From the UHGV virus genome UHGV-1377021: a stretch of 23,643 bases of DNA; one strand, given 5' to 3'. This DNA is from a virus. Of the stretch, positions 1 to 23,643 are shown piece after piece; the first letter of the stretch is position 1; each line of letters begins with the position of its first letter. A program made the position numbers and the translations under genes. The notes under the pieces were generated by a model. That model searched no databases and was not told the origin of the DNA. It saw only the letters and a list, made by a program, of their open reading frames with translations.

Positions 1-153
1 GCCAGCAGGAAGAATACCGCAAGCATATTTTTGGTGAGAGAAAACAGGATGACTGGAGCCTATATGGCTATGGTACCAGGACAAATAAAAACGGATATAG
101 CCTTTACACATATTGAGGAATTCTATGAAACAGACAATTTTCCTCAGGAGTAA
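1..153 (+). CDS. 3' end of an upstream gene (partial, product unknown)
   Basis: Frame 1 is open from the first base of the window to a TAA at 151-153 and overlaps the ninB start; no recognisable motif in the 50 visible codons. Confidence 0.3.
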   Translation, partial: ASRKNTASIFLVRENRMTGAYMAMVPGQIKTDIAFTHIEEFYETDNFPQE

Positions 154-535
154 GCAACAACAGCAAGCCGCAATCAACGCCATCCTCGCAACACCACTCG
201 ATAAAGACAAGCCAGTTACCATCCGCATTACTGACTACAAGCGCAACCTTGACCAGAACGCAAAATTTCACGCGATGCTGGCGGATATCGCACGTCAGGT
301 TCAATGGTGCGATAAATGGTTAAAACCAGAACAATGGAAGGTTTTGTTGATAAGCGGTCATGCAGTGGCAACAAAACAGGAAGCTGATGTTTTGCCCGGC
401 CTTGAAGGCGAATACGTCAACATTCGCGAAAGCAGCGCACAGATGAGCGTGAAGCGCATGGCAAGTCTGATCGAGTACACAACAGCCTGGGCTATTGGTC
501 AGGGTGTCAGATTTACCGACAGGAGGTACGAATGA
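125..535 (+). CDS. ninB: NinB/Orf-family recombination mediator
   Basis: Translation [21 protein letters not shown]...[22 protein letters not shown] resembles lambda NinB as I remember it (same length class, conserved LDQN...W core). The track ORF begins at a TTG at 113; the ATG at 125 is the more likely start. Confidence 0.85.
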
Positions 536-708
536 GACGACAGCGACGAAGTATCACCGACATCATCTGCGAAAACTGCAAATACCTTCCAACGAAACGC
601 TCCAGAAATAAACGCAAACCAATCCCAAAATAATCTGACGTAAAAACCTTCAATTACACGGCTCACCTGTGGGATATCCGGTGGCTAAGACATCGTGCGA
701 GGAAATGA
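532..708 (+). pseudogene. ninE: NinE-like gene interrupted by an in-frame TAA (codon 34)
   Basis: ATG at 532 overlaps the ninB stop (ATGA). It encodes [33 protein letters not shown], then TAA at 631-633, then the same frame continues SDVKTFNYTAHLWDIRWLRHRARK to a TGA at 706-708 that overlaps the next ATG. The N-terminal segment matches my recollection of lambdoid NinE. Confidence 0.5.
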
Positions 709-1070
709 CAATGGATTATTCACAGTTAAGTGATTTTGAAATTAACGTGGCGGTATTCGAAGCCATTCATAACGGATCACCGGATTACAAAGAAGGTGAG
801 AATGGCGCGATGGTGTTTATCTCATTTGAGGGAGACATTGTAAACGGAGACGCAGTTGAAGTAGAAGTTGAGCGCGGATCCTTTAACCCATGCGCAAACC
901 CAGCAGACGCATGGCCGATTATTGAAAAATACAGGATTAGCATTATCAATCTCGATGAAGACGAGTGGGGTGCACGCGGTGTGGCCTACTGTAAATCTAA
1001 GCGAGCTATACATGAAAATCCCCTCCGCGCCGCCATGATTGTCTTTCTCATGATGCAGAGAATCCAATAA
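705..1070 (+). CDS. NinX-like small nin-region protein (hypothetical)
   Basis: 121-codon ORF from the ATG at 705 (MTMDYSQLSDFEINVAVFEAIHNG...), start overlapping the ninE stop; sits where ninX lies in P22-like nin regions. The track ORF starts upstream at 669 without an ATG. Confidence 0.55.
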   Translation: MTMDYSQLSDFEINVAVFEAIHNGSPDYKEGENGAMVFISFEGDIVNGDAVEVEVERGSFNPCANPADAWPIIEKYRISIINLDEDEWGARGVAYCKSKRAIHENPLRAAMIVFLMMQRIQ

Positions 1071-1246
1071 TGCTTAGCCCCTCCCAATCCCTTCAATACC
1101 AGAAAGAAAGCGTCGAGCGGGCTTTAACGTGCGCTAACTGCGGTCAGAAGCTGCATGTGCTGGAAGTTCACGTGTGTGAGCACTGCTGCGCAGAACTGAT
1201 GAGCGATCCGAATAGCTCAATGTACGAGGAAGAAGACGATGAATGA
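1070..1246 (+). CDS. ninF: NinF-like small Cys-rich protein
   Basis: 58-codon ORF MLSPSQSLQYQKESVERALTCANCGQKLHVLEVHVCEHCCAELMSDPNSS... with a CxxC...CxxCC pattern, resembling lambda NinF as remembered; too short to appear in the ORF track. Confidence 0.7.
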   Translation: MLSPSQSLQYQKESVERALTCANCGQKLHVLEVHVCEHCCAELMSDPNSSMYEEEDDE

Positions 1247-1964
1247 GTTAATAAATGGCAATGCCATCAAAATGACAAGCATTGAAATCGCTGAGTTGGT
1301 AGAAAGCCGCCATAGCAATGTAAAAGTATCCATAGATAGATTGGTGAAACGTGGCGTTATCAAGCCTCCTGCATTGCAGCACACTAACATAATCAATGAT
1401 TTAGGTGTTATTACCGGGAAGCGTGATTTCTACGTCTTCGAGGGCGAACAAGGAAAGCGAGACAGCATTATTGTCGTCGCCCAATTGTCGCCGGAATTCA
1501 CCGCTCGTCTTGTTGACCGTTGGCGAGAGCTTGAAGAAACTGCGGTTAATATCCCCAAAACGCTACCAGAAGCGTTGCGCCTTGCTGCTGATCTTGCTGA
1601 GCAGAAAATGCAACTGGAAAACCAGCTCGCAATTGCCGCACCTAAAGTTGAGTTTGCCGATCGCGTTGGCGAGGCCAGCGGAATTTTGATTGGAAACTTT
1701 GCAAAGGTTGTTGGTATTGGTCCAAACAAACTGTTTGCGTGGATGCGCGATCACAAAATCCTTATTGCTTCAGGTTCCCGGCGCAATGTACCAATGCAGG
1801 AATATATGGATCGCGGCTATTTCACAGTGAAAGAAACAGCGGTCAACACAAATCACGGAATACAGATATCGTTCACCACAAAAATCACCGGGCGTGGTCA
1901 ACAGTGGCTGACCAGAAAGCTGCTCGATAACGGAATGCTGAAAGTAACAGGGGAGGCTGCTTAA
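1239..1964 (+). CDS. Phage regulatory protein, Rha-like N-terminus with KilAC/ANT-type C-terminal domain (antirepressor-like)
   Basis: 241 aa; the N-terminus (SIEIAELVESRHSNVKVSIDRL) looks like a Rha-family DNA-binding region and the C-terminal half like a KilA-C/ANT domain. Start could be the ATG at 1239 or 1272. Confidence 0.65.
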   Translation: MNELINGNAIKMTSIEIAELVESRHSNVKVSIDRLVKRGVIKPPALQHTNIINDLGVITGKRDFYVFEGEQGKRDSIIVVAQLSPEFTARLVDRWRELEETAVNIPKTLPEALRLAADLAEQKMQLENQLAIAAPKVEFADRVGEASGILIGNFAKVVGIGPNKLFAWMRDHKILIASGSRRNVPMQEYMDRGYFTVKETAVNTNHGIQISFTTKITGRGQQWLTRKLLDNGMLKVTGEAA

Positions 1965-2254
1965 TGGCTAACCTACGCAAAGAAGCACGCGGCAGAGAAT
2001 GCCAGGTACGTATTTACGGCGTATGCAATGGCAATCCTGAAACTACAGTTCTGGCACATTATCGGATGGCTGGAATTTGCGGAACGGGAATGAAGCCTGA
2101 CGACCTAATCGGCGCATGGGCTTGTAGCGCGTGTCACGATGAAATCGACCGACGCACCCATAATCTCGACAACAAAGACGCCAGACTTTACCACCTCGAA
2201 GGCGTGATCAGGACGCAGGCGATACTACTGAAGGAGGGGAAGATTAAGTCATGA
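1964..2254 (+). CDS. YbcO-like Cys/His-rich protein (DUF1364-type, putative nuclease)
   Basis: 96 aa, RGRECQVRIYGVCNGNPETTVLAHYR...CSACHDEIDRRTH; resembles E. coli DLP12 YbcO as I recall it; start overlaps the preceding stop (TAATG). Confidence 0.7.
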   Translation: MANLRKEARGRECQVRIYGVCNGNPETTVLAHYRMAGICGTGMKPDDLIGAWACSACHDEIDRRTHNLDNKDARLYHLEGVIRTQAILLKEGKIKS

Positions 2255-2613
2255 ATGAATATCAGTTCGTGCTTCCTTACCCGCCGTCGGTGAACACCTA
2301 CTGGCGAAGACGGGGAAGCCAATACTACATCAGCGATAAAGGCCAGAAATACCGAAAAGACGTTCAGCAAATCATCCGCCAACTCAAGTTAGATATTTTC
2401 ACCAAATCACGACTCCGCATCAAAGTCATCGCAGACGTTCCAGACTCCCGCCGCCGCGACCTCGATAACATCCTGAAGGGTTTACTCGACTCCCTTATCC
2501 ACGCCGGATTTGCGGAAGACGACGAGCAATTCGATGACATTCGCGTAATTCGTGGCGTGAAAGTACCAGGCGGACGGCTTGGAATAAAAATCACCGAACT
2601 GGAGAACGTATGA
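2251..2613 (+). CDS. rusA: RusA Holliday-junction resolvase
   Basis: 120 aa with the LPYPPSVNTYWRRRG...DSRRRDLDNILKGLLDSL pattern characteristic of RusA; ATGA overlap with the upstream stop. Confidence 0.85.
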   Translation: MNEYQFVLPYPPSVNTYWRRRGSQYYISDKGQKYRKDVQQIIRQLKLDIFTKSRLRIKVIADVPDSRRRDLDNILKGLLDSLIHAGFAEDDEQFDDIRVIRGVKVPGGRLGIKITELENV

Positions 2614-2798
2614 ACGCCACAATTCAAACGATACCAGAGCTTCTTATCCAGACACGAGGCAATCAGACCGAAGTGGCGAGGATGCTTTCCTGCGCAAGAG
2701 GAACAGTGCTCAAGTACAACCGAGACAGCAAAGGTGAGCGTCACGTAATAGTTAACGGCGTCCTGATGGTCAAACAGGGCAAGAGGGGAAGACGATGA
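2610..2798 (+). CDS. ninH: NinH-like small DNA-binding protein
   Basis: 62 aa, IPELLIQTRGNQTEVARMLSCARGTVLKYNRD...VIVNGVLMV, resembling lambda NinH as remembered; overlapping start/stop with neighbours. Confidence 0.6.
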   Translation: MNATIQTIPELLIQTRGNQTEVARMLSCARGTVLKYNRDSKGERHVIVNGVLMVKQGKRGRR

Positions 2799-3283
2799 GC
2801 ATAAGAGAACTAAACCTCACCAAAGAACAGCACGAGTGGCTGAATGGCTGGCTTGAACTGTGGGGCGCATGGGTTTATTCAGGTCGTCTGGAAAAGCGCA
2901 TGAGCAGCGTAATAGCGAAGTTCATGGAGAGCGTAGAGCCGGGAAGAATTATGACAAGGCCAATGTGTAATGATGATGATGGAATGTTGATTTCTCAGGT
3001 CGTCGATTCCGTCATGTACATTGACAAGAAAGCCTTTGGCATCCTCCTCAGCTACTACGCTCATGGATCTTCCAAGCACGCCATTGCATCTTACTATCAT
3101 CGTGTCGCAAGACCTCGCAAGATGTTATGCCGGGGCGGCGGGCGCATTCAAAAACCATCGCTCGCAACCTGTCGCCGGGAAGTTGACGAAATCCTCAATG
3201 CCTCGTTGTTTATGATTTATCCGGTTCTGGATAGTGCGTTTAAAAACCGGAAACGTGTAGAGAAAATTAAACATGTAGCATAG
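2795..3283 (+). CDS. Q: Late-gene antitermination protein Q (phage 82/21 QuuD type)
   Basis: 162 aa with the WLELWGAWVY...RPMCNDDDGMLISQVV pattern typical of the Q82-type family; last gene before the late promoter and lysis cassette. Confidence 0.75.
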   Translation: MSIRELNLTKEQHEWLNGWLELWGAWVYSGRLEKRMSSVIAKFMESVEPGRIMTRPMCNDDDGMLISQVVDSVMYIDKKAFGILLSYYAHGSSKHAIASYYHRVARPRKMLCRGGGRIQKPSLATCRREVDEILNASLFMIYPVLDSAFKNRKRVEKIKHVA

Positions 3284-3287
3284 AACG

Positions 3288-3325
3288 TGTTGACATCATT
3301 GAGCAAATGAGCAACACTATTCACA
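3288..3325 (+). promoter_or_regulatory. Candidate Q-dependent late promoter (PR'-like) with qut region
   Basis: Exact TTGACA -35 hexamer at 3290-3295 directly after the Q stop; the -10 element is not clean (CACTAT/TATTCA candidates at 19-22 nt spacing). Confidence 0.4.
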
Positions 3326-3331
3326 TAAGCT

Positions 3332-3370
3332 GCCGTTAGTGACTCTTAAGTTGCAACGGTGGCTTTTTTT
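3332..3370 (+). terminator. tR'-like intrinsic terminator just downstream of the late promoter
   Basis: CCGTT(3333-3337)/AACGG(3355-3359) stem with a long loop, followed by GGC and a T7 run (3364-3370). Confidence 0.45.
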
Positions 3371-3448
3371 GTTTGCACAACAGGTAAGAGCATTGAACCC
3401 GCAGACCTCGCGGAATTGGTGAAAGGTGCCGCGCAGTGCTCTTATCGT

Positions 3449-3576
3449 TGTGGTGAAGCTCAATGGCGAGCTAGCAGATAGGCGACAGTGAAAATACTAG
3501 TCATGTAGCTGACCGCCGCGCGTACTGCAATCGGCAGCGCACCGATGGAAGCCGGTTCGATTCCGGCCGCCACAAC
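3449..3576 (+). ncRNA. tRNA-like element (degenerate or interrupted; not a canonical tRNA)
   Basis: Near-consensus T-arm GCCGG-TTCGATT-CCGGC at 3551-3567; 7/7 acceptor pairing between 3449-3455 and 3568-3574; D-arm-like GCTC-AATGGC-GAGC at 3458-3471; anticodon-arm-like stem 3530-3534/3542-3546. But there is about 58 nt extra between D-arm and anticodon arm, no U33, and no CCA. Confidence 0.3.
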
Positions 3577-3585
3577 CCAAACTGA

Positions 3586-3635
3586 GCCGTAGCCACTGGC
3601 TATCCTGAATTCATCAGTGATAGTTACGCTGCGGC
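3586..3635. repeat. 50-nt imperfect palindrome/hairpin centred near a GAATTC site
   Basis: Outer 8-bp stem GCCGTAGC/GCTGCGGC (one G-U), inner 9-bp stem CTATCCTGA/TCAG(T)GATAG with a 1-nt bulge, 5-nt loop ATTCA; no U-tract follows. Confidence 0.5.
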
Positions 3636-3821
3636 CTTCTACACATGACCTTCGTGAAAGCGGTGGCAGGAGGTTGCGCTAACAACCTCATGCCGTTTTG
3701 CCCGTGCATATCGGTCACGAACAAATCTGATTACTAAACACAGTAGCCTGGATTTGTTCTATCAGTAATCGACCTTATTCCTAATTAAATAGAGCAAATC
3801 CCCTCAATGAAGGGGTAGAGC

Positions 3822-4025
3822 ATGTACCGTATGGACAAAATCAGAGAATGGTTCAGTTACAGCTTCGGAGGACTGACTGCGATGGGTGGCATTCTCTCCC
3901 TGAATGACTGGGCTGTCATCATTGGTATTCTTTGTACTGTCGGCACATTTGGCATCAACTGGTACTACAAGCGCAAAGAGCGCGAGGACAGATTGAATGG
4001 CAATGTCACCGGCACTACGAAATAG
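3822..4025 (+). CDS. Holin, small class II/pinholin-like, with a dual-start motif
   Basis: 67 aa beginning M-Y-R-M (two Met separated by a basic residue, as in the lambda S107/S105 dual-start arrangement); two hydrophobic segments, the first Gly-rich ([13 protein letters not shown]), and a charged C-terminus; directly upstream of and overlapping the endolysin. Confidence 0.7.
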
Positions 4026-4500
4026 CGTAATAGCGGCGATAAGTGGCGGGGCTATTGCTATAGCATCTGTGTTAATCACTGGACCAAGTGGTAACGATGG
4101 CCTGGAAGGTGTCAGCTACATACCATACAAAGATATTGTTGGTGTATGGACTGTATGCCACGGACACACCGGAAAAGACATCATGCTCGGTAAAACGTAT
4201 ACCGAAGCAGAATGCAAAGCCCTCCTGAATAAAGACCTTGCCACTGTCGCCAGACAAATTAACCCGTACATCAAAGTCGATATACCGGAAACAACGCGCG
4301 GCGCTCTTTATTCGTTCGTCTATAACGTGGGCGCAGGCAATTTCAGAACATCGACGCTTCTTCGCAAAATCAACCAGGGCGATATCAAGGGCGCATGTGA
4401 TCAGCTACGGCGCTGGACATACGCTGGCGGTAATCAATGGAAAGGACTGATGACTCGCCGTGAGATTGAGCGTGAAGTCTGTTTGTGGGGGAAGCAATGA
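3997..4500 (+). CDS. SAR endolysin (T4-lysozyme-like muramidase with N-terminal signal-anchor-release domain)
   Basis: 167 aa; N-terminal Gly/Ala-rich weakly hydrophobic stretch ([19 protein letters not shown]) followed by a GLEG...YKDIVG...WTVCHGHTG block carrying the E-D-T catalytic arrangement of phage-21-type lysozymes. Confidence 0.85.
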
Positions 4501-4934
4501 GCAGAGTAACCGCGATTATCTCCGCTCTGGTTATCTGCATCATCGTTTGCCTGTCATGGGCTGTTAATCACTACCGTGATAACGCCATCGCCTACAAAGA
4601 GCAGCGCGATAAGGCCGCATCCACAATCGCTGACATGCAGAAGCGTCAGCGTGATGTTGCAGAACTTGACGCCAGATACACAAAGGAGCTTGCTGATGCT
4701 AATGCGACTATCGAAAGTCTCCGTGCTGATGTTTCTGCTGGTCGTAAGCGCCTGCAAGTCTCCGCCACCTGTGCAAAGTCAACGACCGGAGCCAGCGGCA
4801 TGGGCGATGGAGAAAGCCCAAGACTTACAGCAGATGCTGAACTCAATTATTACCGTCTCCGAAGTGGAATCGACAAGATAACCGCGCAGGTTAACTACCT
4901 GCAGGAGTACATCAGGACGCAATGCCTTCGATGA
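4497..4934 (+). CDS. Rz: Rz i-spanin
   Basis: [31 protein letters not shown]... matches lambda Rz from memory: N-terminal TM anchor then coiled-coil-type periplasmic domain. The track ORF starts 4 codons upstream at 4485. Confidence 0.85.
4696..4881 (+). CDS. Rz1: Rz1 o-spanin (lipoprotein) embedded in the +1 frame of Rz
   Basis: [33 protein letters not shown]...: lipoprotein signal with a lipobox Cys and Pro-rich mature region, entirely inside Rz, as in lambda. Confidence 0.75.
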
Positions 4935-5300
4935 TAGCGATAATTTTACTCATCATCCTTCACATCTGGCTCTGTAGACAGGGTGGTGATCACTTCTGGA
5001 GTGAATCCAGATTAAACATCTCATTGCTGATGCTTGATATTGAGCATCTGGCGCGCGGTAAGGGGCTGCGTTGAGATAAGAGCCAGTTCATTACAAAGCC
5101 TATCTACGGGTGGGCTTGATAATGAAACCGGAATTTATTCTGGGCAACCAGTTACGGCAGTACAGCGAAACAACCCAAGCCAGTAAGTGGGGAAATAACA
5201 CTGGCAGCCACTGAAAGATGAACCTCCTGCCTTATGGCAAAAAAGATTCTTTGTGGTGGCGGACTGATGGAAAGACATTCGCTGAATCGATGATGAACAA

Positions 5301-5486
5301 GTGGAAGAGGTTGCTATGGTTTCCGTGAACAAAGATCCGAAGGAAGGCGTTGAATACATCACTGGTGCTGATGGTGTGAAAAGGCCAATGGCTTATTACA
5401 AAGCGGCCGAAGAGAGGGCAAGAATGGAAAATCCCCCTAAATGCGGATCATTTTTCGACATGCTGGACCTTCCATGGAAGTTGTGA
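5301..5486 (+). CDS. Hypothetical small protein
   Basis: 61-codon ORF ending 10 nt before a hairpin plus T-run terminator; no recognisable motif. Confidence 0.3.
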   Translation: MEEVAMVSVNKDPKEGVEYITGADGVKRPMAYYKAAEERARMENPPKCGSFFDMLDLPWKL

Positions 5487-5496
5487 ACAACTAACA

Positions 5497-5518
5497 GGTC
5501 GCTCAGGCGGCCTTTTTT
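5497..5518 (+). terminator. Intrinsic terminator
   Basis: GGTCGC/GCGGCC stem (one G-U) with 4-nt loop TCAG, followed by TTTTTT (5513-5518). Confidence 0.5.
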
Positions 5519-5625
5519 ATTGCCATTACAAAAGCCATTCCCTACAGAGTGGCTTTGATAATGGCTTATACCCTACACGGGATAACTTAACTGATATCCC
5601 TTTTAACGGATAAACGGAGCCAACA

Positions 5626-5868
5626 ATGGCAGAGATTATTCCCATGACTGAAGAACAGAAATTCCAGTTAGAGATTTACAAACTGGTCATGAACCAGAAC
5701 GCAGCCGCAGAAGAAGCATTTCAATTCATTGGCACTGACGAACTGAAGCTTGAGCTATTCAAAATTCACTTCCAGTCAGGTGGCGCTAATTCAGATATCA
5801 CGACCCGCACTATCGAAGCGGTGCGTAAATCGAAGGAAGCGTTAGACCTGTTCACTACCGGAGTGTAA
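5626..5868 (+). CDS. Hypothetical protein (80 aa)
   Basis: ORF with a GGAG-type RBS (ACGGAGCCAACAATG); acidic, predicted helical; no motif recognised. Confidence 0.5.
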   Translation: MAEIIPMTEEQKFQLEIYKLVMNQNAAAEEAFQFIGTDELKLELFKIHFQSGGANSDITTRTIEAVRKSKEALDLFTTGV

Positions 5869-5871
5869 GAG

Positions 5872-6159
5872 ATGACTGAACAAGAAATGCCGAGATACCA
5901 GTGCCACAAAAAAGTTCGCGCCCTGAAGATTGGCTCTATAGAACATAAGCCAAACCCAGATCAGCCTGGTAAGTCTGGCTCTTCTAGTTATGGGGCAATT
6001 ATTCATCCGGATGATAAGAAATACGCAGCATTTGATGTTAGCGCGGAATATATCTGTAAGCACCGACCAATGCCTGGAGGCTATTACGTTGTCTATGAGG
6101 ATGGATATGAATCATATTCTCCTGCTGAGGTATTTGAGTCTGGATATTCAAAATTATAG
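5872..6159 (+). CDS. Hypothetical protein (95 aa)
   Basis: ORF starting 4 nt after the previous stop (GTAAGAGATG); contains a GSSSYG low-complexity stretch and a Tyr-rich C-terminus; no motif recognised. Confidence 0.5.
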   Translation: MTEQEMPRYQCHKKVRALKIGSIEHKPNPDQPGKSGSSSYGAIIHPDDKKYAAFDVSAEYICKHRPMPGGYYVVYEDGYESYSPAEVFESGYSKL

Positions 6160-6168
6160 GAATCCTCT

Positions 6169-6348
6169 ATGACAATCGTCGTTGATCTTGGTAAGGAGAA
6201 GAAATTCCCAATTACTCAAGAGCTATACGAGCGACTTGAAAGCGTCATCCATGATTACGATGGTGAAATCAGTTTATGCGAGGCGATTGGCACACTCGAA
6301 TTGCTGAAGCAGTCACTGATTGAAGGCGCGAAAGAGTCCTCAGCCTGA
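6169..6348 (+). CDS. Hypothetical small protein (59 aa)
   Basis: ATG at 6169 with an AGG RBS, 60 codons to TGA at 6346-6348; below the ORF track's length cutoff. Confidence 0.4.
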   Translation: MTIVVDLGKEKKFPITQELYERLESVIHDYDGEISLCEAIGTLELLKQSLIEGAKESSA

Positions 6349-6365
6349 AATAACAACTAAGTGAG

Positions 6366-6794
6366 ATGAATATGGCGACTGAATCAAAAGCTGGTCGCCC
6401 CTCTGATTATATGCCGGAGGTGGCTGACGATATCTGCTCGTTGCTTTCTTCTGGCGAGAGTTTGCTGAAAGTATGTAAGCGTCCTGGTATGCCGGATAAG
6501 TCCACTGTTTTCCGCTGGTTGGCAAAGCATGAGGATTTTCGCGACAAGTACGCGAAGGCAACTGAGGCACGAGCTGATTCTATTTTCGAAGAGATATTCG
6601 AAATTGCTGACAATGCGATTCCAGATGCTGCTGAAGTGGCAAAGGCAAGACTTCGCGTTGATACACGCAAATGGGCGCTGGCCCGAATGAATCCCCGTAA
6701 GTATGGCGACAAGGTAACTAACGAGCTTGTCGGCAAAGACGGCGGCGCAATTCAGATTGAAACATCACCGATGAGCACTCTATTCGGAAAATGA
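6366..6794 (+). CDS. Terminase small subunit (P22 gp3 / Sf6 gp1 type)
   Basis: 140-142 aa, MATESKAGRPSDYMPEVADDICSLLSSGESLLKVCK...; I recognise this as essentially the Sf6 small terminase sequence. Start may be the ATG at 6366 or 6372. Confidence 0.85.
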   Translation: MNMATESKAGRPSDYMPEVADDICSLLSSGESLLKVCKRPGMPDKSTVFRWLAKHEDFRDKYAKATEARADSIFEEIFEIADNAIPDAAEVAKARLRVDTRKWALARMNPRKYGDKVTNELVGKDGGAIQIETSPMSTLFGK

Positions 6795-18021: not shown

Positions 18022-20018
18022 TGGCTAAAGCATGGAAAGATGTTATCGCCTCTCCACAGTATCAGGCGTTAGCACCAGAACAAAAAGCGCAGGCTCAGGA
18101 GCAATACTTCAATGAAGTCGTGGCCCCGCAAGCCGGAGAAAATGCAGAGCAGGCTAAGCAAGCTTTCTATGCTGCCTATCCATTGCCATCTGTGCGGCCA
18201 GTGGAGACACAACAACCAGTAGCACAGCAACAACCACAGCAAAGCGGATTTATGTCTGATCTTGGTGAAGCAGTAAAAGAGACTGGTCGCGGACTGGTGC
18301 AGGCTGGCGTGAACGTGGCAAACATACCTGCATCAGTTGCCGATGCTGTAACAAGTGCGGCTGCATGGGCTGGCGGTAAACTCGGCATTGGCGATGGTAC
18401 ATATCAACCAGCGCCACGAGTAACAACGCAGGGATTAGAGCAGGATTTTGGCCTTCAGCAAGGCGCGCTGACTCCACAAACGACAGAGGGCCGGGTGTTT
18501 GCTGAAGCATTGCCTTACCTCACTCCTGCTGGCGTTGAGAGAGCGGCAACACAGGCACCAACACTTGCTGGCCGAATTGCTCAGGGGGCAACTCGCCTTC
18601 TCGCAGAAAACGCAGTTGGATCACTTGCTGCAAACAGTATGAAAGATGATGCGGAGGCACTCGCTACCGATTTAGGTGTTGGCGTTCTGGCAGGCGGCGC
18701 TATTAACGCTGCTGGACGTGGATTAGGTGCTGCTTATCGTGGCGTTCGCGGTGCTATTGCGCCAGAAGCGCAGCAAGCTATCAGATTTGCAGAGCGTGAA
18801 GGAGTTCCTCTGCACACCACAGACCTGTTACAACCCACTTCCCGCGTCGGAAAAATGGCGCAGACTACAGCAGAAAATATCCCTCTGGCTGGCACAAGCG
18901 GAATGAGAGCAACGCAACAGGAAGCGAGAAGCCAGTTGGTGCAGAGATTTGCTGATAAATTCGGTGAGTATGATCCAGCGGTTATTATTGACAGCCTTAA
19001 AGCGAAAACATCAGGAATTCGTCGCGCTGCCGGTAATCGACTGGAGCAGGTTCAGAATGCTATGGCTGGAGTAAACATTCAGCCTGCGCGAGCAATTCAG
19101 CAGATTGATACAGAAATATCTAACCTGCAGAAGCTTGGTAAGGTTGCTGATAACGAGACTATTTCAAAACTTCAGTCCTATCGTGATGAGCTTGTTCGCA
19201 ATGCTGGTCCTGATGGTCCGGTAAATCTGGATTTGAAGCAATTAAGCGACCTGCGCAGCCAGTTCAGAATGGACGTGAAGGGTGAGCGACCAGTGTTACC
19301 AAACCGTTCCGATGCTGCCATTCAGCGAGTTTACAAGGCGATGACAGACGACATCAATGGTGCCATTGGTCAGAATCTTGGCAACGATACTCTCCGTAAA
19401 TATCAGCAGGCCAATGCCGTATACGCTGACGAAGCAGCGAAACTAAAGAATACCAGGCTGAAGAATGTTCTCATGAAAGGCGACCTGACGCCGGAAGTTG
19501 TCAACAACATGCTATTCAGCAAGAACAAATCGGAAATTAAGACGCTGTATAACTCAGTTGGTCGTGTTGGCAGAGCGCAAATGCGCAATGGCATCATTGG
19601 AAAGGCGATGGAGAAATCTGGCGGATCCCCTGACCAGTTCCTTCGGCAGCTTAACATCCTGCAAAACCAGACTGGCATCACATTTAAAGGTCAGGAAGCC
19701 GCTTATCTGAAAGGATTGAAAAACTACCTGCAATCCACGCAACAGGCTGCAAAAGCGGCAGTAACAACACCAACAGGGCAGCAAACCATCCCGTTCATTA
19801 TCGGATATGGGACGGCAATGAACCCGGCGACAACTGGCGCAGCAGTAAGCTACGGACTTCTTACTCGCGCCTATGAGAGCGAGCTATTCAGAAATGCAAT
19901 GCTCCGAATGGCAAACACCCCACGCGGATCAACGGCGTTTGAGAAAGCCATGCAGCAGGCGCAAAAGGCCATTAACGCCCTTACTCAGGGTGCCAAGTCT
20001 GATGCGTTGTCAGAATAG
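18021..20018 (+). CDS. Ejection protein (P22 gp16-like)
   Basis: 665 aa ORF in the gp16 position; Q/A-rich low-complexity N-terminal region; start overlaps the upstream stop (TAATG). Confidence 0.7.
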   Translation: MAKAWKDVIASPQYQALAPEQKAQAQEQYFNEVVAPQAGENAEQAKQAFYAAYPLPSVRPVETQQPVAQQQPQQSGFMSDLGEAVKETGRGLVQAGVNVANIPASVADAVTSAAAWAGGKLGIGDGTYQPAPRVTTQGLEQDFGLQQGALTPQTTEGRVFAEALPYLTPAGVERAATQAPTLAGRIAQGATRLLAENAVGSLAANSMKDDAEALATDLGVGVLAGGAINAAGRGLGAAYRGVRGAIAPEAQQAIRFAEREGVPLHTTDLLQPTSRVGKMAQTTAENIPLAGTSGMRATQQEARSQLVQRFADKFGEYDPAVIIDSLKAKTSGIRRAAGNRLEQVQNAMAGVNIQPARAIQQIDTEISNLQKLGKVADNETISKLQSYRDELVRNAGPDGPVNLDLKQLSDLRSQFRMDVKGERPVLPNRSDAAIQRVYKAMTDDINGAIGQNLGNDTLRKYQQANAVYADEAAKLKNTRLKNVLMKGDLTPEVVNNMLFSKNKSEIKTLYNSVGRVGRAQMRNGIIGKAMEKSGGSPDQFLRQLNILQNQTGITFKGQEAAYLKGLKNYLQSTQQAAKAAVTTPTGQQTIPFIIGYGTAMNPATTGAAVSYGLLTRAYESELFRNAMLRMANTPRGSTAFEKAMQQAQKAINALTQGAKSDALSE

Positions 20019-20107
20019 CTTCGCAAACACCAGGAACGTGCAAAAACCAAATATGTAGAACGCAATATTCAGCATATCTCTTTGCATAAATCCTCCGTAA
20101 CGGATGG

Positions 20108-20368
20108 TTAGCTACTGTCTTTTTTATATAGCTTCTTGAGCGTATCAAAGACAATTTTCTTAACCATATCCGATTGTTGTTCTGCCATACGCTCTGCATC
20201 GTCAATGTAAACTGATGCAGAGCTTTGTTTATCCAATGATTCTTCAATCGCTGCAATTATCTCTGAGTTCAGCGACCTGTTATTCATCTTCGCACGCTGC
20301 TTAATTTTCGCGTGGAGTTCATGCGGAAGTCTCAAGTGAAACTGCGCCTCGTCGTATTTGCTGCACAT
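20108..20368 (-). CDS. mnt: Mnt-like ribbon-helix-helix repressor (Arc/MetJ superfamily)
   Basis: 86 aa from the ATG at 20368: QFHLRLPHELHAKIKQRAKMNNRSLNSEIIAAIEESL...NDAERMAEQQSDMVKKIVFDTLKKLYKK closely parallels P22 Mnt as remembered. The track ORF extends to 20560 but the extension has no homology. Confidence 0.75.
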   Translation of the reverse strand: MCSKYDEAQFHLRLPHELHAKIKQRAKMNNRSLNSEIIAAIEESLDKQSSASVYIDDAERMAEQQSDMVKKIVFDTLKKLYKKDSS

Positions 20369-20513
20369 CCTTGATGCCTCACCTAATGGGTGGAATGGCA
20401 TCGTAAAACCTACTGTACAAATCAACAATCGTACCATTTCGGTATATAACAAACGCCAACCGTAGCCATGCTGCGGCGATTCCTTGCATCTGGAGCAAAT
20501 TAAATGACAGACA

Positions 20514-21008
20514 TTATCTAAAACAAGCAAACTCGCCATGATATTTTTCCCTGAATGCAATAGACATTAATTCGGCCAGCTCAATATCATCGGTATACCC
20601 AAGGCAAATAGACTTACCTTTTAGTTTGAACATAACTTTATATGTGTTTTTCCCTTTAAGAAGATGAACTCCTTTTATACCTGTATTGGATGATGAAACG
20701 CTGTTGGTTTTATTCTGACCTCTAGTTACTTCTCTTAGGTTTGAAATTCTATTGTCATTTTTAACCCCGTTAATATGGTCAATTAACCCTTTAGGCCAGC
20801 ATCCTTTCATATAAAACCAAGCAAGTCGGTGGCAAAGATACGATTTTCCATTAATCCGTATTGATAAGTAGTCGGCCTTTGAGTTCGTCTTAAATCCAGC
20901 AACCTTTCCGATACTGGAGCTACCAGAAGCTATCTTCCAAGTGAAGACGCCTGTTTCTGGGTTGTAGTTGAGTGAAGAGGTTAATTCTTTATGAGTAATC
21001 ATATTCAT
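20514..21008 (-). CDS. HNH endonuclease with C-terminal AP2-type DNA-binding domain (homing-endonuclease-like)
   Basis: 164 aa; HNH_3-type motif LIDHINGVKNDNRISNLREVTRGQN followed by an AP2-like segment (GIKGVHLLKGKNTYKVMFKLKGKSICLGYTDDIELAELM); the gene is visibly AT-rich relative to the flanking structural genes. Confidence 0.7.
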   Translation of the reverse strand: MNMITHKELTSSLNYNPETGVFTWKIASGSSSIGKVAGFKTNSKADYLSIRINGKSYLCHRLAWFYMKGCWPKGLIDHINGVKNDNRISNLREVTRGQNKTNSVSSSNTGIKGVHLLKGKNTYKVMFKLKGKSICLGYTDDIELAELMSIAFREKYHGEFACFR

Positions 21009-21028: not shown

Positions 21029-23002
21029 ATGTCAAATATTGTGCCAAATGTTATAATTTCAATGCCAAGTCAACTATTTACGTTAGCCAGAAAATTCCAG
21101 GCCGCAAGCAATGGCAAGATATTCATTGGTAAGATAGATTCCGATCCTACGCTCCCACAGAATCAAGTGCAGGTTTATGTAGAGAATGAAGACGGCTCTC
21201 ACGTTCCTGTTTCGCAACCAATCATCATTAATGCTGCTGGATATCCGGTATATAACGGACAGATTGCCAAGTTCGTAACTGTGCAAGGCCATTCTATGGC
21301 TGTTTATGATGCATACGGTGCTCAGCAGTTTTATTTTCCGAATGTTCTGAAGTACGATCCTGACAGATTGCGACAGGATTTAGCGCTTCCAACAGGCGCT
21401 GAGCTTGTAGGCGTGCAACCACAAGGAAATCTTTCGCAAGTCATTCAGTTTGTATCTCCAGAGCAGTTTGGCGCCATCGGAGATGGTACGGTTCATCCAT
21501 TATCTGAGCGTTATGCGACTCTTGCAGCAGCGCAGGCTGTATACCCATTCGTAACATCTCTGACCCAGACAATTGACTGGGCAGCGTGTCAGGCGGCTGA
21601 GAACTATGCGCGTGGGAAATGTCCGGTTCGCTGTCCTTATTATGCTAAATATCATTTCGGAAACAGTGATTATCTTGAGCTTGGAATAAATAGTAAATGG
21701 TTTGGCGGGGTTAATGTTAATCGTGATTCTGGTGGCACCAGAATGATCAGAACTATACCATTATCGAAGCCACCTTTCGGGCAGGATTGCGTTGTTCGCG
21801 TCATGGATGCCACTAAAGCGGGTAGTTCCGATGAGTTCGTGCGAGGAATAGTCTTTGATGGTTTTGTCTTAGATAGGGGTACAGTTAGAAGGGCCGCCAG
21901 CAAAGGGATGGGGACCATCTGCTTTCATGCAAACTATGGTATGGGGATGACGCTAGGATTAATTGCATTTGGTGCAGAATACGGCGTTTTCGGATATAGT
22001 TTTTGGGCGAGTACGGGGTGGCTTAAAATTGATAGTTGTCATAAGGCATTCTGGGCTGATGCAACATTAATCACCCCTGAAAATCCATCGGTTCCTTCAG
22101 GGGCAGTAAATACAACATTTGACTTTGATATAAGAATTGATGCGTGCGTATTTGGATTGGTTCTGAATCGCGTGAAATATTCAAAATTTACAGGGTATAT
22201 TGAAGGGATTGCAGTCAGTAGTTCGTCAGTACCATTCCCAATATATGATAGCGAAAATGAAACTGCAATTGCTATCACAGCTGTGAGGTGCGATAGCGTA
22301 GACATAACCGAAATGGGCATTGAGTACTGGGAAGGTGTTCATGTTTACTCCAACGAATCAACGCTAAGCGTTAACATGTCATGGACTCAGGATAAAACCT
22401 TAAAAAATACTACTGGTAAACATGGCCCTTATCAGTCTGTATCCCAATTAACTGGTGTTACTGAGTTATTCACGCTACCCTCAACAAATAATAGCTATTA
22501 CTATTCTGTTAATAAATCTCTTTTAACATTAAGAAATATGACAGGAGATATGTCAGGTGCTTCCTTTGCAAATACATTCTTGGTGACAGTTGACGCAAAT
22601 GCAAGATTTCTGATGATGAATACAGGAGTTTATTTTGGGTCCTCACGTTTAATAGCGCCAGCAAACTGGGCCAACATTGAATGCATAAACGATCCGTTTA
22701 TGCCTAATTATTTGGTTCCAGAGGGTTATCGTTATGAAGGTAGGGGCCAGTGCACTGCAAGATCTTGGTCCTTGAAAGCGATCAATGGAGGTGATGGAAA
22801 GGTAAGCCTTAATTATGGCTCTGAGATACCTACTGGTTGGGAGCTTATAGATTGGACAGTGCATGTAATAACTGAAAACAAATCTCAAGCCTCATCCATA
22901 GGCATATCATCAGTAAGCAATAATAGTGTGACCTTCCAAACTAATGTTACGTCTGCTGGTTTTTCAATACAATATAAGCTTCGGTTAAGGGTATCTAAAT
23001 AA
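21029..23002 (+). CDS. Tailspike: conserved P22-type N-terminal head-binding domain fused to a divergent C-terminal receptor-binding domain
   Basis: 657 aa; residues 1-~110 (...[29 protein letters not shown]...[15 protein letters not shown]...NVLKYDPD) parallel the P22/Sf6/HK620 tailspike head-binding domain. The rest has an FGAIGDG motif typical of beta-helix glycanases; its C-terminal third is AT-rich. Confidence 0.85.
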
Positions 23003-23007
23003 TAAAT

Positions 23008-23035
23008 AAAAGCCCCTGCGGGGGCTTTTGGTTTT
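23008..23035. terminator. Bidirectional intrinsic terminator between convergent genes
   Basis: AAAGCCCC-TGC-GGGGCTTT hairpin flanked by T-runs on the + strand (TTTTGGTTTT) and by A-runs upstream (T-rich on the minus strand). Confidence 0.6.
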
Positions 23036-23643
23036 AGCTGCATGTCTCGTTCCTGAAAACTGCATGATAGATAGAGCCATTTTTAATTATGGTATAAATA
23101 CCATTCCATCTTTTTACGACACTACCGCATATTTCGCTTGCAGGACCTTTATAACTACCCTTCTCTGCCTTGAAAAAAGGCGATTCTATTTCAGCAAACA
23201 TTCTTGTCGTACTCCACCCTAAGTCAGGGTGAATTATGTCCTTTGCAAATGGATATCTGGTATCAATTCTTTTAGCAATTTGGGGGTATGGAGGATAACC
23301 ATGTATAACCAGTGGTGAGTCAAGGCTTATTTGTGACATATCAGATCGCATCTCTTGGGTTGTCTGAGATTCAAATCGGTACATGCTTTTGGTGAAATTA
23401 ATTAAATTCGTTATTATTGACATGTTAAATATCAATGCAATCATTACTGAGGCGGTTGAAATAATGTTTTTTCTCCATTGCATTAGCGATGCAAAGCATA
23501 GAAGTAACATAACCAGTGAATTGAATCCAATCATAACCCTAGGGTAGTATGCGGGATCCTTAGTCAAGAAAAACATTGCGCAGGAAAATAACAACCCAAA
23601 TGTTATGCAGCAAAAATAAAAGGCAGATTTTAATGTCACATTA
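23034..23643 (-). CDS. Integral membrane protein, 5' end outside the window (possible O-antigen modification enzyme, GtrC-like)
   Basis: Frame is open to the window edge (no ATG at 23639, so the true start lies beyond 23643); at least three TM segments then a soluble C-terminal domain; AT-rich; convergent with the tailspike, where P22-like phages carry gtr or oac genes. Confidence 0.45.
   Translation of the reverse strand, partial: NVTLKSAFYFCCITFGLLFSCAMFFLTKDPAYYPRVMIGFNSLVMLLLCFASLMQWRKNIISTASVMIALIFNMSIITNLINFTKSMYRFESQTTQEMRSDMSQISLDSPLVIHGYPPYPQIAKRIDTRYPFAKDIIHPDLGWSTTRMFAEIESPFFKAEKGSYKGPASEICGSVVKRWNGIYTIIKNGSIYHAVFRNETCS

Follow-up and report, generated by a model that had tools for sequence, protein, structure and literature searches.

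The right end of the window (the whole 23,643-nucleotide stretch UHGV-1377021 that was analysed) very probably belongs to a P22-like temperate E. coli phage of the Sf6/HK620 type, and it carries a cassette in which a tailspike gene converges on the 3' part of a gtrC gene. We put forward tentatively, with somewhat less than even confidence, a further reading, that the receptor-binding body of the tailspike (RBD) and gtrC form a matched 'attack plus immunity' cassette that moves as a unit across tail adaptors, morphotypes and genera. Both types of gene are well known; the particular pair found here is uncharacterised, and no current concept is challenged by it. The features on which the argument turns are these:

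20514-21008, minus strand: HNH endonuclease gene (PF13392, E=4e-15)
21029-23002, plus strand: tailspike gene, a complete ORF of 657 aa
21029-21367, plus strand: P22/Sf6-type head-binding (tail-adaptor) domain, tailspike aa 1-113 (PF09008)
21368-21706, plus strand: linker and conserved N-terminal beta-helix cap, aa 114-226, the putative left homology arm of the cassette
21707-23002, plus strand: variable low-GC (41%) beta-helix body with C-terminal beta-sandwich, aa 227-657, the predicted specificity-determining part
23007-23030, both strands: intrinsic terminator hairpin, bidirectional, separating the tailspike gene from the convergent gtrC
23034-23643, minus strand: gtrC, 3' part only (codons 272-473, the full gene having 473; stop codon 23034-23036), truncated where the contig ends

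The phage assignment rests on the backbone, which is 96-97% identical in nucleotide sequence to Sf6 and HK620, and on the placement of the tailspike gene. A 665-aa ORF at 18021-20018 lies inside a block with that same identity to the Sf6/HK620 DNA-transfer genes, and is followed by mnt, HNH and tailspike, so that the tailspike gene comes after the ejection-protein genes and the mnt region, as in P22-like genomes. The HNH gene has been inserted immediately upstream of the tailspike gene and divergent from it; a boundary sequence (20459-20516) that abuts the tailspike start in loci L001-L003 lies in the window on the far side of HNH, a gene which we mention as context for the left mosaic joint. 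The closest relative, E. coli prophage L001, is 99.1% identical to window positions 21170-23643 over the shared 2.47 kb. It occupies the intS/yfdC insertion site: beyond its tailspike the order is gtrC-gtrB-gtrA-integrase-yfdC-mlaA-fadL, and this flank matches the intS region of the E. coli chromosome with 99.4% identity. At the megablast level the tailspike/gtrC pair was found in none of 5,426 complete E. coli genomes, and it is present in a few dozen draft assemblies. An Rfam scan of the whole window gave no match.

The tailspike is chimeric, as the earlier note had proposed, with a P22-type adaptor joined to an unrelated beta-helix RBD whose closest relatives bear other adaptors. PF09008 (Head_binding) matches aa 1-113 over its 113-position model (E=2e-64). 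A PDB sequence search aligned Sf6 gp14 (7sg7) with aa 1-119 at E=1e-58, the Sf6 and P22 head-binding domains in the PDB giving E=1e-58 to 2e-39. Sequence resemblance to the tailspikes of Sf6 and P22 ends at aa 113-119, in keeping with the change of domain that had been placed near residue 115. The FGAIGDG motif named in the same note occupies aa 147-153 (window 21467-21487); the block around it shows no variation, or almost none, among 78 homologues, and the invariant columns of the homologue alignment run from P144 to W224. Residues 141-202 resemble LKA1 gp49 (4RU4) and phi297 (4RU5). Within E. coli, the P22-like tailspike of L010 has 91.8% nucleotide identity up to L001 position 10678, which is window position 21706, and the EC2 and SW0716xx tailspikes are 96.3% identical over tailspike nucleotides 142-576. 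The first 141 nucleotides differ from L001 at 60 positions, with a recombination breakpoint at 21169/21170.

What does the rest of the tailspike do? The tailspike has a right-handed parallel beta-helix of the receptor-binding/depolymerase kind. RBD relatives at 82-90% identity are found in Cronobacter, Yersinia and Pantoea, where the N-terminal adaptor is PF18668; among phage records the best are Proteus phage depolymerases, at 64% amino acid identity. Known structures of like fold, AS12 gp42 of an Acinetobacter phage (6EU4), CBA120 TSP2 (5W6P) and Pseudomonas LKA1 gp49 (4RU4), show 12-18% identity over the fold, so that neither catalytic type (hydrolase or lyase) nor substrate is transferable from them, and with the LKA1 lyase the sequence similarity covers the N-terminal cap only. 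The invariance of four acidic residues, D371, E392, E411 and E432, hints that they may be catalytic. A search for a tailspike of defined specificity matching over its full length, the result against which the earlier note had staked its reading of the RBD, found none, and NCBIfam gave no match for the tailspike or for the convergent gtrC fragment. We infer that residues ~227-657 bind and cleave host O-antigen.

The convergent ORF is open for 202 codons (36.7% GC), the 3' 43% of gtrC, and encodes three hydrophobic transmembrane segments and then a soluble tail of ~115 aa; in a serotype-specific GT-C glucosyltransferase these correspond to the final three membrane-spanning helices and the alpha/beta domain at the C-terminus. 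A word-indexed protein search with the 202-aa fragment came back empty, so an exhaustive HMMER search was needed, in which the fragment proved 100% identical to residues 272-473 of a 473-aa protein, P0121. Full-length P0121 matches PF14264 at E=2e-22 (80 bits, against a gathering score of 30). The fragment alone does not match PF14264; the model covers P0121 aa 24-315 and the fragment begins at aa 272. The predicted model of P0121 matches GT-C transferases; the protein has their multi-pass membrane fold, and its first extracytoplasmic loop contains the conserved acidic motif. In L001 and in the Yersinia kristensenii prophage L008, gtrC is the third gene of a prophage gtrA-gtrB-gtrC operon; because the window ends inside gtrC, gtrB and gtrA are supplied here from L001. 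The proposal that the membrane gene modifies O-antigen, and so belongs to polysaccharide modification, is thus upheld by the PF14264 match, the GT-C fold and the neighbouring gtrB and gtrA of L001. The earlier suggestion had been gtr or oac: the gtr half stands, the gene being the 3' part of gtrC, and the Oac/acyltransferase-3 acetylase was rejected, as neither the fragment nor P0121 has such a Pfam match. Judged by its family, GtrC would take glucose from Und-P-Glc and transfer it to one particular sugar of the O-unit. Upstream of gtrA, where paired GATC sites were sought as a signature of Dam/OxyR phase variation, L001 has two and L008 none.

This GtrC belongs to a rare subfamily, of which a set of 1.84 billion proteins contains only 15 representatives, and the nearest GtrC outside its own cluster is 41-43% identical. 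No match was obtained with tblastn of the 202-aa fragment against phage records, with an exact 34-mer from gtrC in viral_contigs, or in a PDB sequence search with the full-length protein, and no characterised close sequence relative was found.

Several known systems are instructive. Sf6 and HK620, of the Lederbergvirus type, share the virion genes (96-97% nucleotide identity), and the head-binding domain is ~80% identical to that of Sf6 gp14, but their RBD sequences differ from the one here; nucleotide homology to the window ends at 20088 for Sf6 and at 21364 for HK620, within or before the head-binding segment. At the corresponding position Sf6 has oac, an acetyltransferase gene, rather than a gtr operon. 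Salmonella BTP1/P22 (Kintz et al. 2015, PMC4413052) is alike in having a P22-type head-binding tailspike convergent with gtrC-gtrB-gtrA beside an integrase gene, and in having a GtrC that modifies the O-antigen targeted by the tailspike. The BTP1/P22 endorhamnosidase, however, is unrelated to the present RBD, similarity ending at aa ~113-119, and the GtrC here differs in being of a rare PF14264 subfamily and in having an E. coli host. The Shigella flexneri GtrII-type proteins (PF14264) and the E. coli prophage gtr clusters (PMC7685785) are similar in length (~470-480 aa), in GT-C fold, and in their prophage-borne gtrABC operons.

Where are the ends of the cassette? Between L001 and L010 conservation is confined to 9956-10678 and 13467-14844, and comparisons of this kind delimit a swappable cassette that runs from tailspike aa ~227 to the end of that gene and on through the terminator and gtrC. 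Its conserved arms are tailspike aa 1-226 and, at the opposite end, gtrB/gtrA. The joints mapped are the adaptor/RBD junction at aa 114/126, the cap end at ~aa 226, the bidirectional terminator and the gtrC/gtrB boundary. The terminator is also a recombination joint: homology with Cronobacter locus L006 stops at window position 23029.

Is the pairing of RBD and gtrC meaningful? One might think that the two are neighbours by shared position only, tailspike and modification genes assorting independently and having been acquired in two separate events. We consider this unlikely, though there is evidence for it. At the point where the Cronobacter homology stops, exactly at the terminator, a different modifying gene comes next: after the Cronobacter RBD (90%) come an unrelated gene of 606 aa, an EamA-like gene and a GT2 gene. 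Cronobacter and Kosakonia share the 606-aa gene at 92% identity, and the RBDs that go with it there are only 59% identical to each other. GtrC relatives occur next to an unrelated tailspike (one relative at 33%; locus L014) and, in one case, with no tailspike. The pairing is absent in other places too: beyond an E. coli RBD at 61% lies an unrelated gene of 506 aa, and in the P0006 context a P22-like tailspike of the present RBD family (67%) has small ORFs after it but no gtr genes. Against independent assortment, the variable block between the conserved arms in E. coli holds RBD and gtrC together, and the block is common to the window and L001 at 99% even though their upstream genes differ. 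The Y. kristensenii prophage L008 has the same pair behind a different tail adaptor, collinear with the E. coli cassette in one 4.3-kb alignment. Four of the six GtrC-subfamily members examined adjoin the same RBD family, and the RBD and GtrC amino acid identities track each other (99.6/99.5 in L001, 89/82 in L008, 42/43 in L004 and 40/32 in L015). In at least five E. coli assemblies the accession numbers of GtrC and tailspike are consecutive. E. coli assemblies with the pair include those of proteins EFO4421365/66, MCA7800556/57, WP_063082171/70, EGB9124927/28 and MEX1726134/33, and a Y. kristensenii assembly is GCA_001153365.1. When E. coli is compared with Yersinia, divergence at 4-fold sites is 0.57 for RBD, 0.44 for gtrC, 0.64 for gtrB and 0.72 for gtrA, which would fit a history that RBD and gtrC have shared more recently than gtrAB. 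As to morphotype, the E. coli phage is a P22-like podovirus, and the tail genes of the Y. kristensenii prophage indicate a tape-measure-type tail. The pairing is, in sum, frequent and not obligatory, and the joint acquisition proposed earlier survives for this lineage, where the cassette holds both genes and Yersinia has the pair; elsewhere RBD and modifying gene re-assort.

Base composition suggests a different account, in which the whole module was imported recently from a genus of genuinely low GC, for instance Proteus, Morganella or Providencia. GC was computed in 500-bp windows, with positions 1-20000 as backbone (n=196; mean 0.491, sd 0.025, minimum 0.436). The tailspike 3' end and the convergent gene are AT-rich, as had been claimed: every 500-bp window from 22001 to the end has GC of 0.376-0.400, below the backbone minimum, and the RBD/gtrC region as a whole is at 37-41% against 49.1%. 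The low-GC part of the tailspike begins at ~aa 200-226, not at aa 115, since aa 114-200 are at 52% and linker plus cap at 48-52% overall. The 41% GC of the RBD body against the 49% backbone would suit an import, as would the Proteus phage depolymerases already mentioned and the Proteus and Morganella proteins among the RBD matches. The closest relatives, however, are those of Cronobacter, Yersinia and Pantoea, not Proteus, and the conserved head-binding segment (41.6%) and the mnt/HNH region (0.356-0.416 over 20201-21000) are equally low. Moreover, gtrC is at 33-39% beside host or phage DNA of ~46-60%, so that its low GC is a trait of the family rather than a donor signature. A low-GC source is therefore not demonstrated, gtrC being low in all hosts examined, and we regard such an import as improbable, slightly more so than independent assortment. 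Only for the RBD does the GC, which is 41-43% here, 41.5% in Yersinia and 47.7% in Cronobacter, hint at a history in moderately low-GC Enterobacterales. The membrane protein might, finally, be a Wzy-type O-antigen polymerase or ligase, with seroconversion through a changed polymerisation linkage. Phages epsilon15 and D3 encode O-antigen polymerases that change the linkage, and the window fragment does give a weak Wzy_C (PF04932) match (E=0.0023, 18.1 bits). That score is below the gathering score of 31.7, the match is absent for full-length P0121, which matches only PF14264 GtrII, and the GT-C model and third place in the L001 operon add to the case; a Wzy identity is effectively refuted.

How would a matched RBD-gtrC cassette work? 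The Gtr mechanism, and the serogroup specificity and prophage location of GtrC in E. coli, have been described (PMC7685785, PMC11194591). By the established pathway, GtrB would make undecaprenyl-phosphate-glucose, GtrA would flip it to the periplasm, and GtrC would then place this glucose on one of the O-unit sugars. Such glucosylation would alter the receptor seen by the tailspike, and the lysogen would in consequence be seroconverted and protected from superinfection. In BTP1, GtrC shields O-antigen from the tailspike that this phage encodes convergently (PMC4413052), and by analogy the lysogen here is possibly protected from its own tailspike. The conserved flanks, tailspike aa 1-226 and gtrB/gtrA, could act as homology arms for exchange of the cassette, with the terminator as a second joint at which the RBD and gtrC halves could be swapped independently.

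Tailspike/gtr modules set the O-serotype range of temperate phages and the serotype change of their lysogens, and they bear on serotyping, vaccine antigens and the host range of phages used in therapy. The present locus adds one specificity pair and a clean, mapped example of cassette exchange. If the matched cassette is true, the E. coli and Yersinia hosts would share an O-antigen backbone; if it is true generally, one would be able to predict from the GtrC partner which O-antigen an uncharacterised tailspike targets, and the reverse.

The right end of the window is laid out as follows:

20108-20560, minus strand: mnt ORF, 150 aa from a TTG start
20514-21008, minus strand: HNH endonuclease gene (PF13392), between a conserved boundary sequence and the tailspike start, divergent from the tailspike gene across a 20-nt gap
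21029-23002, plus strand: tailspike ORF, 657 aa
23007-23030, both strands: intrinsic terminator, a GC-rich hairpin between an A-run and a T-run
stop codon 23034-23036 to the window edge, minus strand: 3' part of gtrC, 202 codons, convergent with the tailspike ORF

The minus-strand gene is truncated by the contig end, not by mutation. Sf6, HK620 and related E. coli and Shigella P22-like phages are 96-97% identical to most of the window, and this identity ends within the tailspike gene. Pfam Head_binding covers tailspike residues 1-113 (E=2e-64), and the solved Sf6 and P22 tailspikes align to residues 1-119 only; the rest of the protein has no match in Pfam or NCBIfam. An AlphaFold2 model built from 78 homologues (mean pLDDT 89.3) shows a right-handed parallel beta-helix, then a C-terminal beta-sandwich. 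The FGAIGDG motif (aa 147-153), invariant across the family, lies in the beta-helix cap, the sole part that resembles LKA1 gp49 and phi297 gp61 in sequence. Further along, the invariant acidic residues D371, E392, E411 and E432 may be candidates for catalysis. The tailspike is a chimera, as the earlier note had proposed, of a P22-type adaptor (aa 1-113) and an unrelated beta-helix receptor-binding domain (RBD) whose nearest relatives carry a PF18668 adaptor: those of Cronobacter malonaticus (89% amino acid identity), Yersinia kristensenii (87%) and Pantoea (82%). RBDs of Proteus phage depolymerases (~64%) and E. coli phage ZCEC5 (~50%) follow, with no adaptor recorded. A 97%-identical full-length tailspike belongs to a cluster of 43 sequences, whose named members are all E. 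coli; at the megablast level, the variable part had no match in phage records or in the 5,426 complete genomes of E. coli.

What is the convergent gene? The window fragment encodes three hydrophobic helices followed by some 115 aa of soluble tail, and by itself gives only a sub-threshold Wzy_C match (18.1 bits versus a cut-off of 31.7). A word-indexed protein search with the fragment returned no match, though a 100%-identical protein is present in the 50%-representative library, so that negatives from this search do not amount to absence. An exhaustive HMMER search of 1.84 billion proteins yielded 15 representatives, and with the best of them, P0121 (473 aa), the fragment shares 100% identity over residues 272-473. 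P0121 matches PF14264, 'Glucosyl transferase GtrII', with 80 bits (cut-off 30); NCBI annotates members of its cluster as 'glucosyltransferase domain-containing protein [Escherichia coli]'. In the GtrC family alignment the block D31-D32...R35...W43...G47-R48-P49, close to the N-terminus, is invariant, and the C-terminal domain has two near-invariant cysteines, C443 and C472, which fit an extracytoplasmic location that we infer for this domain.

The closest relative, L001 (a 46.7-kb Logan contig), aligns with window 21170-23643 at 99.1% nucleotide identity without gaps, spanning the RBD, the terminator and gtrC. After its tailspike come gtrC (473 aa, PF14264), gtrB (307 aa, PF00535), gtrA (120 aa, PF04138), integrase, yfdC, mlaA and fadL, and the integrase-side flank matches the E. 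coli chromosome at intS with 99.4% identity. Consecutive accession numbers for GtrC and tailspike recur in five or more independent assemblies of E. coli. The gene order, the intS flank and the consecutive accessions bear out the prediction that a gtr or oac gene would lie here, and it is gtrC. Many Salmonella gtr operons have paired-GATC Dam/OxyR phase-variation switches; L001 has only two GATC sites upstream of gtrA (14707-14859), in no obvious paired arrangement, and L008, the Yersinia locus, has none there.

Are the RBD and gtrC inherited as a unit? The loci compare as follows.

RBD and following genes in the comparison loci
L001, E. coli, P22-like: RBD 99.6% to the window; then GtrC 99.5%
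L008, Y. kristensenii, PF18668 adaptor, tape-measure-type tail genes: RBD 89%; GtrC 82%, GtrB 83%, GtrA 72%
L004, high-GC host, PF18668 adaptor: RBD 42%; GtrC 43%, gtrAB absent nearby
L015, PF18668 adaptor: RBD 40%; GtrC 32%
L006, C. malonaticus: RBD 90%; unrelated 606-aa gene, EamA-like 112-aa gene, GT2
L012, Kosakonia cowanii, P22-like: RBD 60%; same 606-aa gene, 92% to the L006 copy
L010, E. coli, P22-like: RBD 61%; unrelated 506-aa gene, GtrB, GtrA
L014, PF18668 adaptor: RBD unrelated; GtrC 33%
L013, chromosomal-looking gtrABC, no tailspike: GtrC 32%

L001 and L010 share two conserved stretches only, L001 9956-10678 (tailspike aa 1-226; 91.8%) and 13467-14844 (gtrB and gtrA; 96.4%), and the variable block between them, from about 21707 onward in the window, holds the RBD body and gtrC. 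L008 and L001 are collinear over a single 4.3-kb alignment, from RBD residue ~131 to the end of gtrA, with E. coli-Yersinia four-fold-site divergence of 0.57 in the RBD and 0.44 in gtrC, and higher in gtrB (0.64) and gtrA (0.72). Joint acquisition of the pair, as first suggested, accords with the single variable block and the collinear Yersinia pair, but the RBD has other partners in Cronobacter, Kosakonia and L010. Nucleotide homology with Cronobacter stops exactly at the terminator, which is a second joint for exchange of the cassette halves. In sum, the two genes are linked but not obligatorily so, and the cassette is often inherited whole.

In L006 (7043-10163) and L012 (6977-10097), gtrCBA is replaced by genes for a 606-aa protein lacking a Pfam match, a 112-aa EamA-like protein and a 316-aa GT2. 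This set is 92-97% identical between Cronobacter and Kosakonia, against only 59% for their RBDs, and seems to be a different system of O-antigen modification, with three components of which one is an EamA-type flippase. The 506-aa gene at the gtrC position of L010 (6976-8496) lies upstream of near-identical gtrB and gtrA (GtrB 98% to L001); its product, with no Pfam match and no BLAST similarity to GtrC, is probably another serotype-specific transferase family missed by Pfam. P0122, the GtrC relative (43%) in L004 (5758-7443), has an integrase gene and a 56-aa ORF beside it, where the host DNA is ~60% GC. No gtrA or gtrB was seen near it, and it is either an orphan dependent on gtrAB elsewhere or an operon remnant.

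Base composition was the ground for proposing a low-GC source. In 500-bp windows, backbone GC (1-20000, n=196) averages 0.491 (sd 0.025, minimum 0.436), and from 22001 onward all windows, at 0.376-0.400, fall below that minimum, so the AT-richness is real and well beyond the backbone range. It does not begin at residue 115: codons 114-200 are 52% GC and the drop starts at about residues 200-226. The head-binding segment is 41.6% GC, and the adjoining mnt/HNH region is low too. In all five tailspike-linked loci gtrC is 33-39% GC, regardless of neighbouring host or phage DNA of ~46% to 60%; in chromosomal-looking L013 it is 42.6%, with the flank at 53.8%. The low GC of gtrC is therefore a family property, uninformative on donor, and import of the module from a low-GC source is not borne out. 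RBD GC is more variable (window 41-43%, Yersinia 41.5%, Cronobacter 47.7%, L004 48.4%); a history partly in moderately low-GC Enterobacterales is plausible, with no nameable donor.

The left side is mosaic as well. Despite the 99% shared block, the upstream genes differ, mnt and HNH in the window versus arc, arc and antirepressor in L001. The boundary sequence (20459-20516) abuts the tailspike start in L001 and in two further loci, L002 and L003, and nucleotides 1-141 of the tailspike gene (21029-21169) have 60 differences from L001 versus 19 in the next 1,833. This divergent stretch right beside the HNH gene looks like a co-conversion tract left by homing-type insertion. An HNH gene is annotated at the matching place in phage Kapi1, and L004 has an HNH_3+AP2 gene near its tail genes, 40% identical to the window's. 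Arc/Mnt homology covers only residues 71-146 of the mnt ORF; its real start is likely an ATG at ~20368, giving 86 aa, the length of Mnt in L010. The tailspike genes of E. coli EC2 and SW0716xx match window 21170-21604 (tailspike nt 142-576) at 96.3% identity but are different in their distal parts. Sequence comparison suggests a further joint near residue 192, where the beta-helix cap ends and the GC drop sets in.

In the Gtr pathway, GtrB charges undecaprenyl phosphate with glucose, GtrA flips the charged lipid to the periplasm, and GtrC puts the glucose on a specific O-unit sugar (PMC7685785, PMC11194591). The identities and order of the gtr genes are shown for L001, and going by the established pathway they would carry out the same three steps. 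The gtr operon of phage BTP1 is reported to be constitutively expressed (PMC4413052), and the L001-type operon, with its few GATC sites, may be too. In BTP1, GtrC is reported to shield the O-antigen from the tailspike encoded convergently with it (PMC4413052), and most likely the same logic would apply here. The observation in the earlier note stands, and its interpretation, the low-GC donor apart, was essentially right. The module is well known and this locus is an uncharacterised instance of it, in a family already correctly annotated by NCBI; the point of mild interest is a cleanly mapped cassette common to different phage types and genera.
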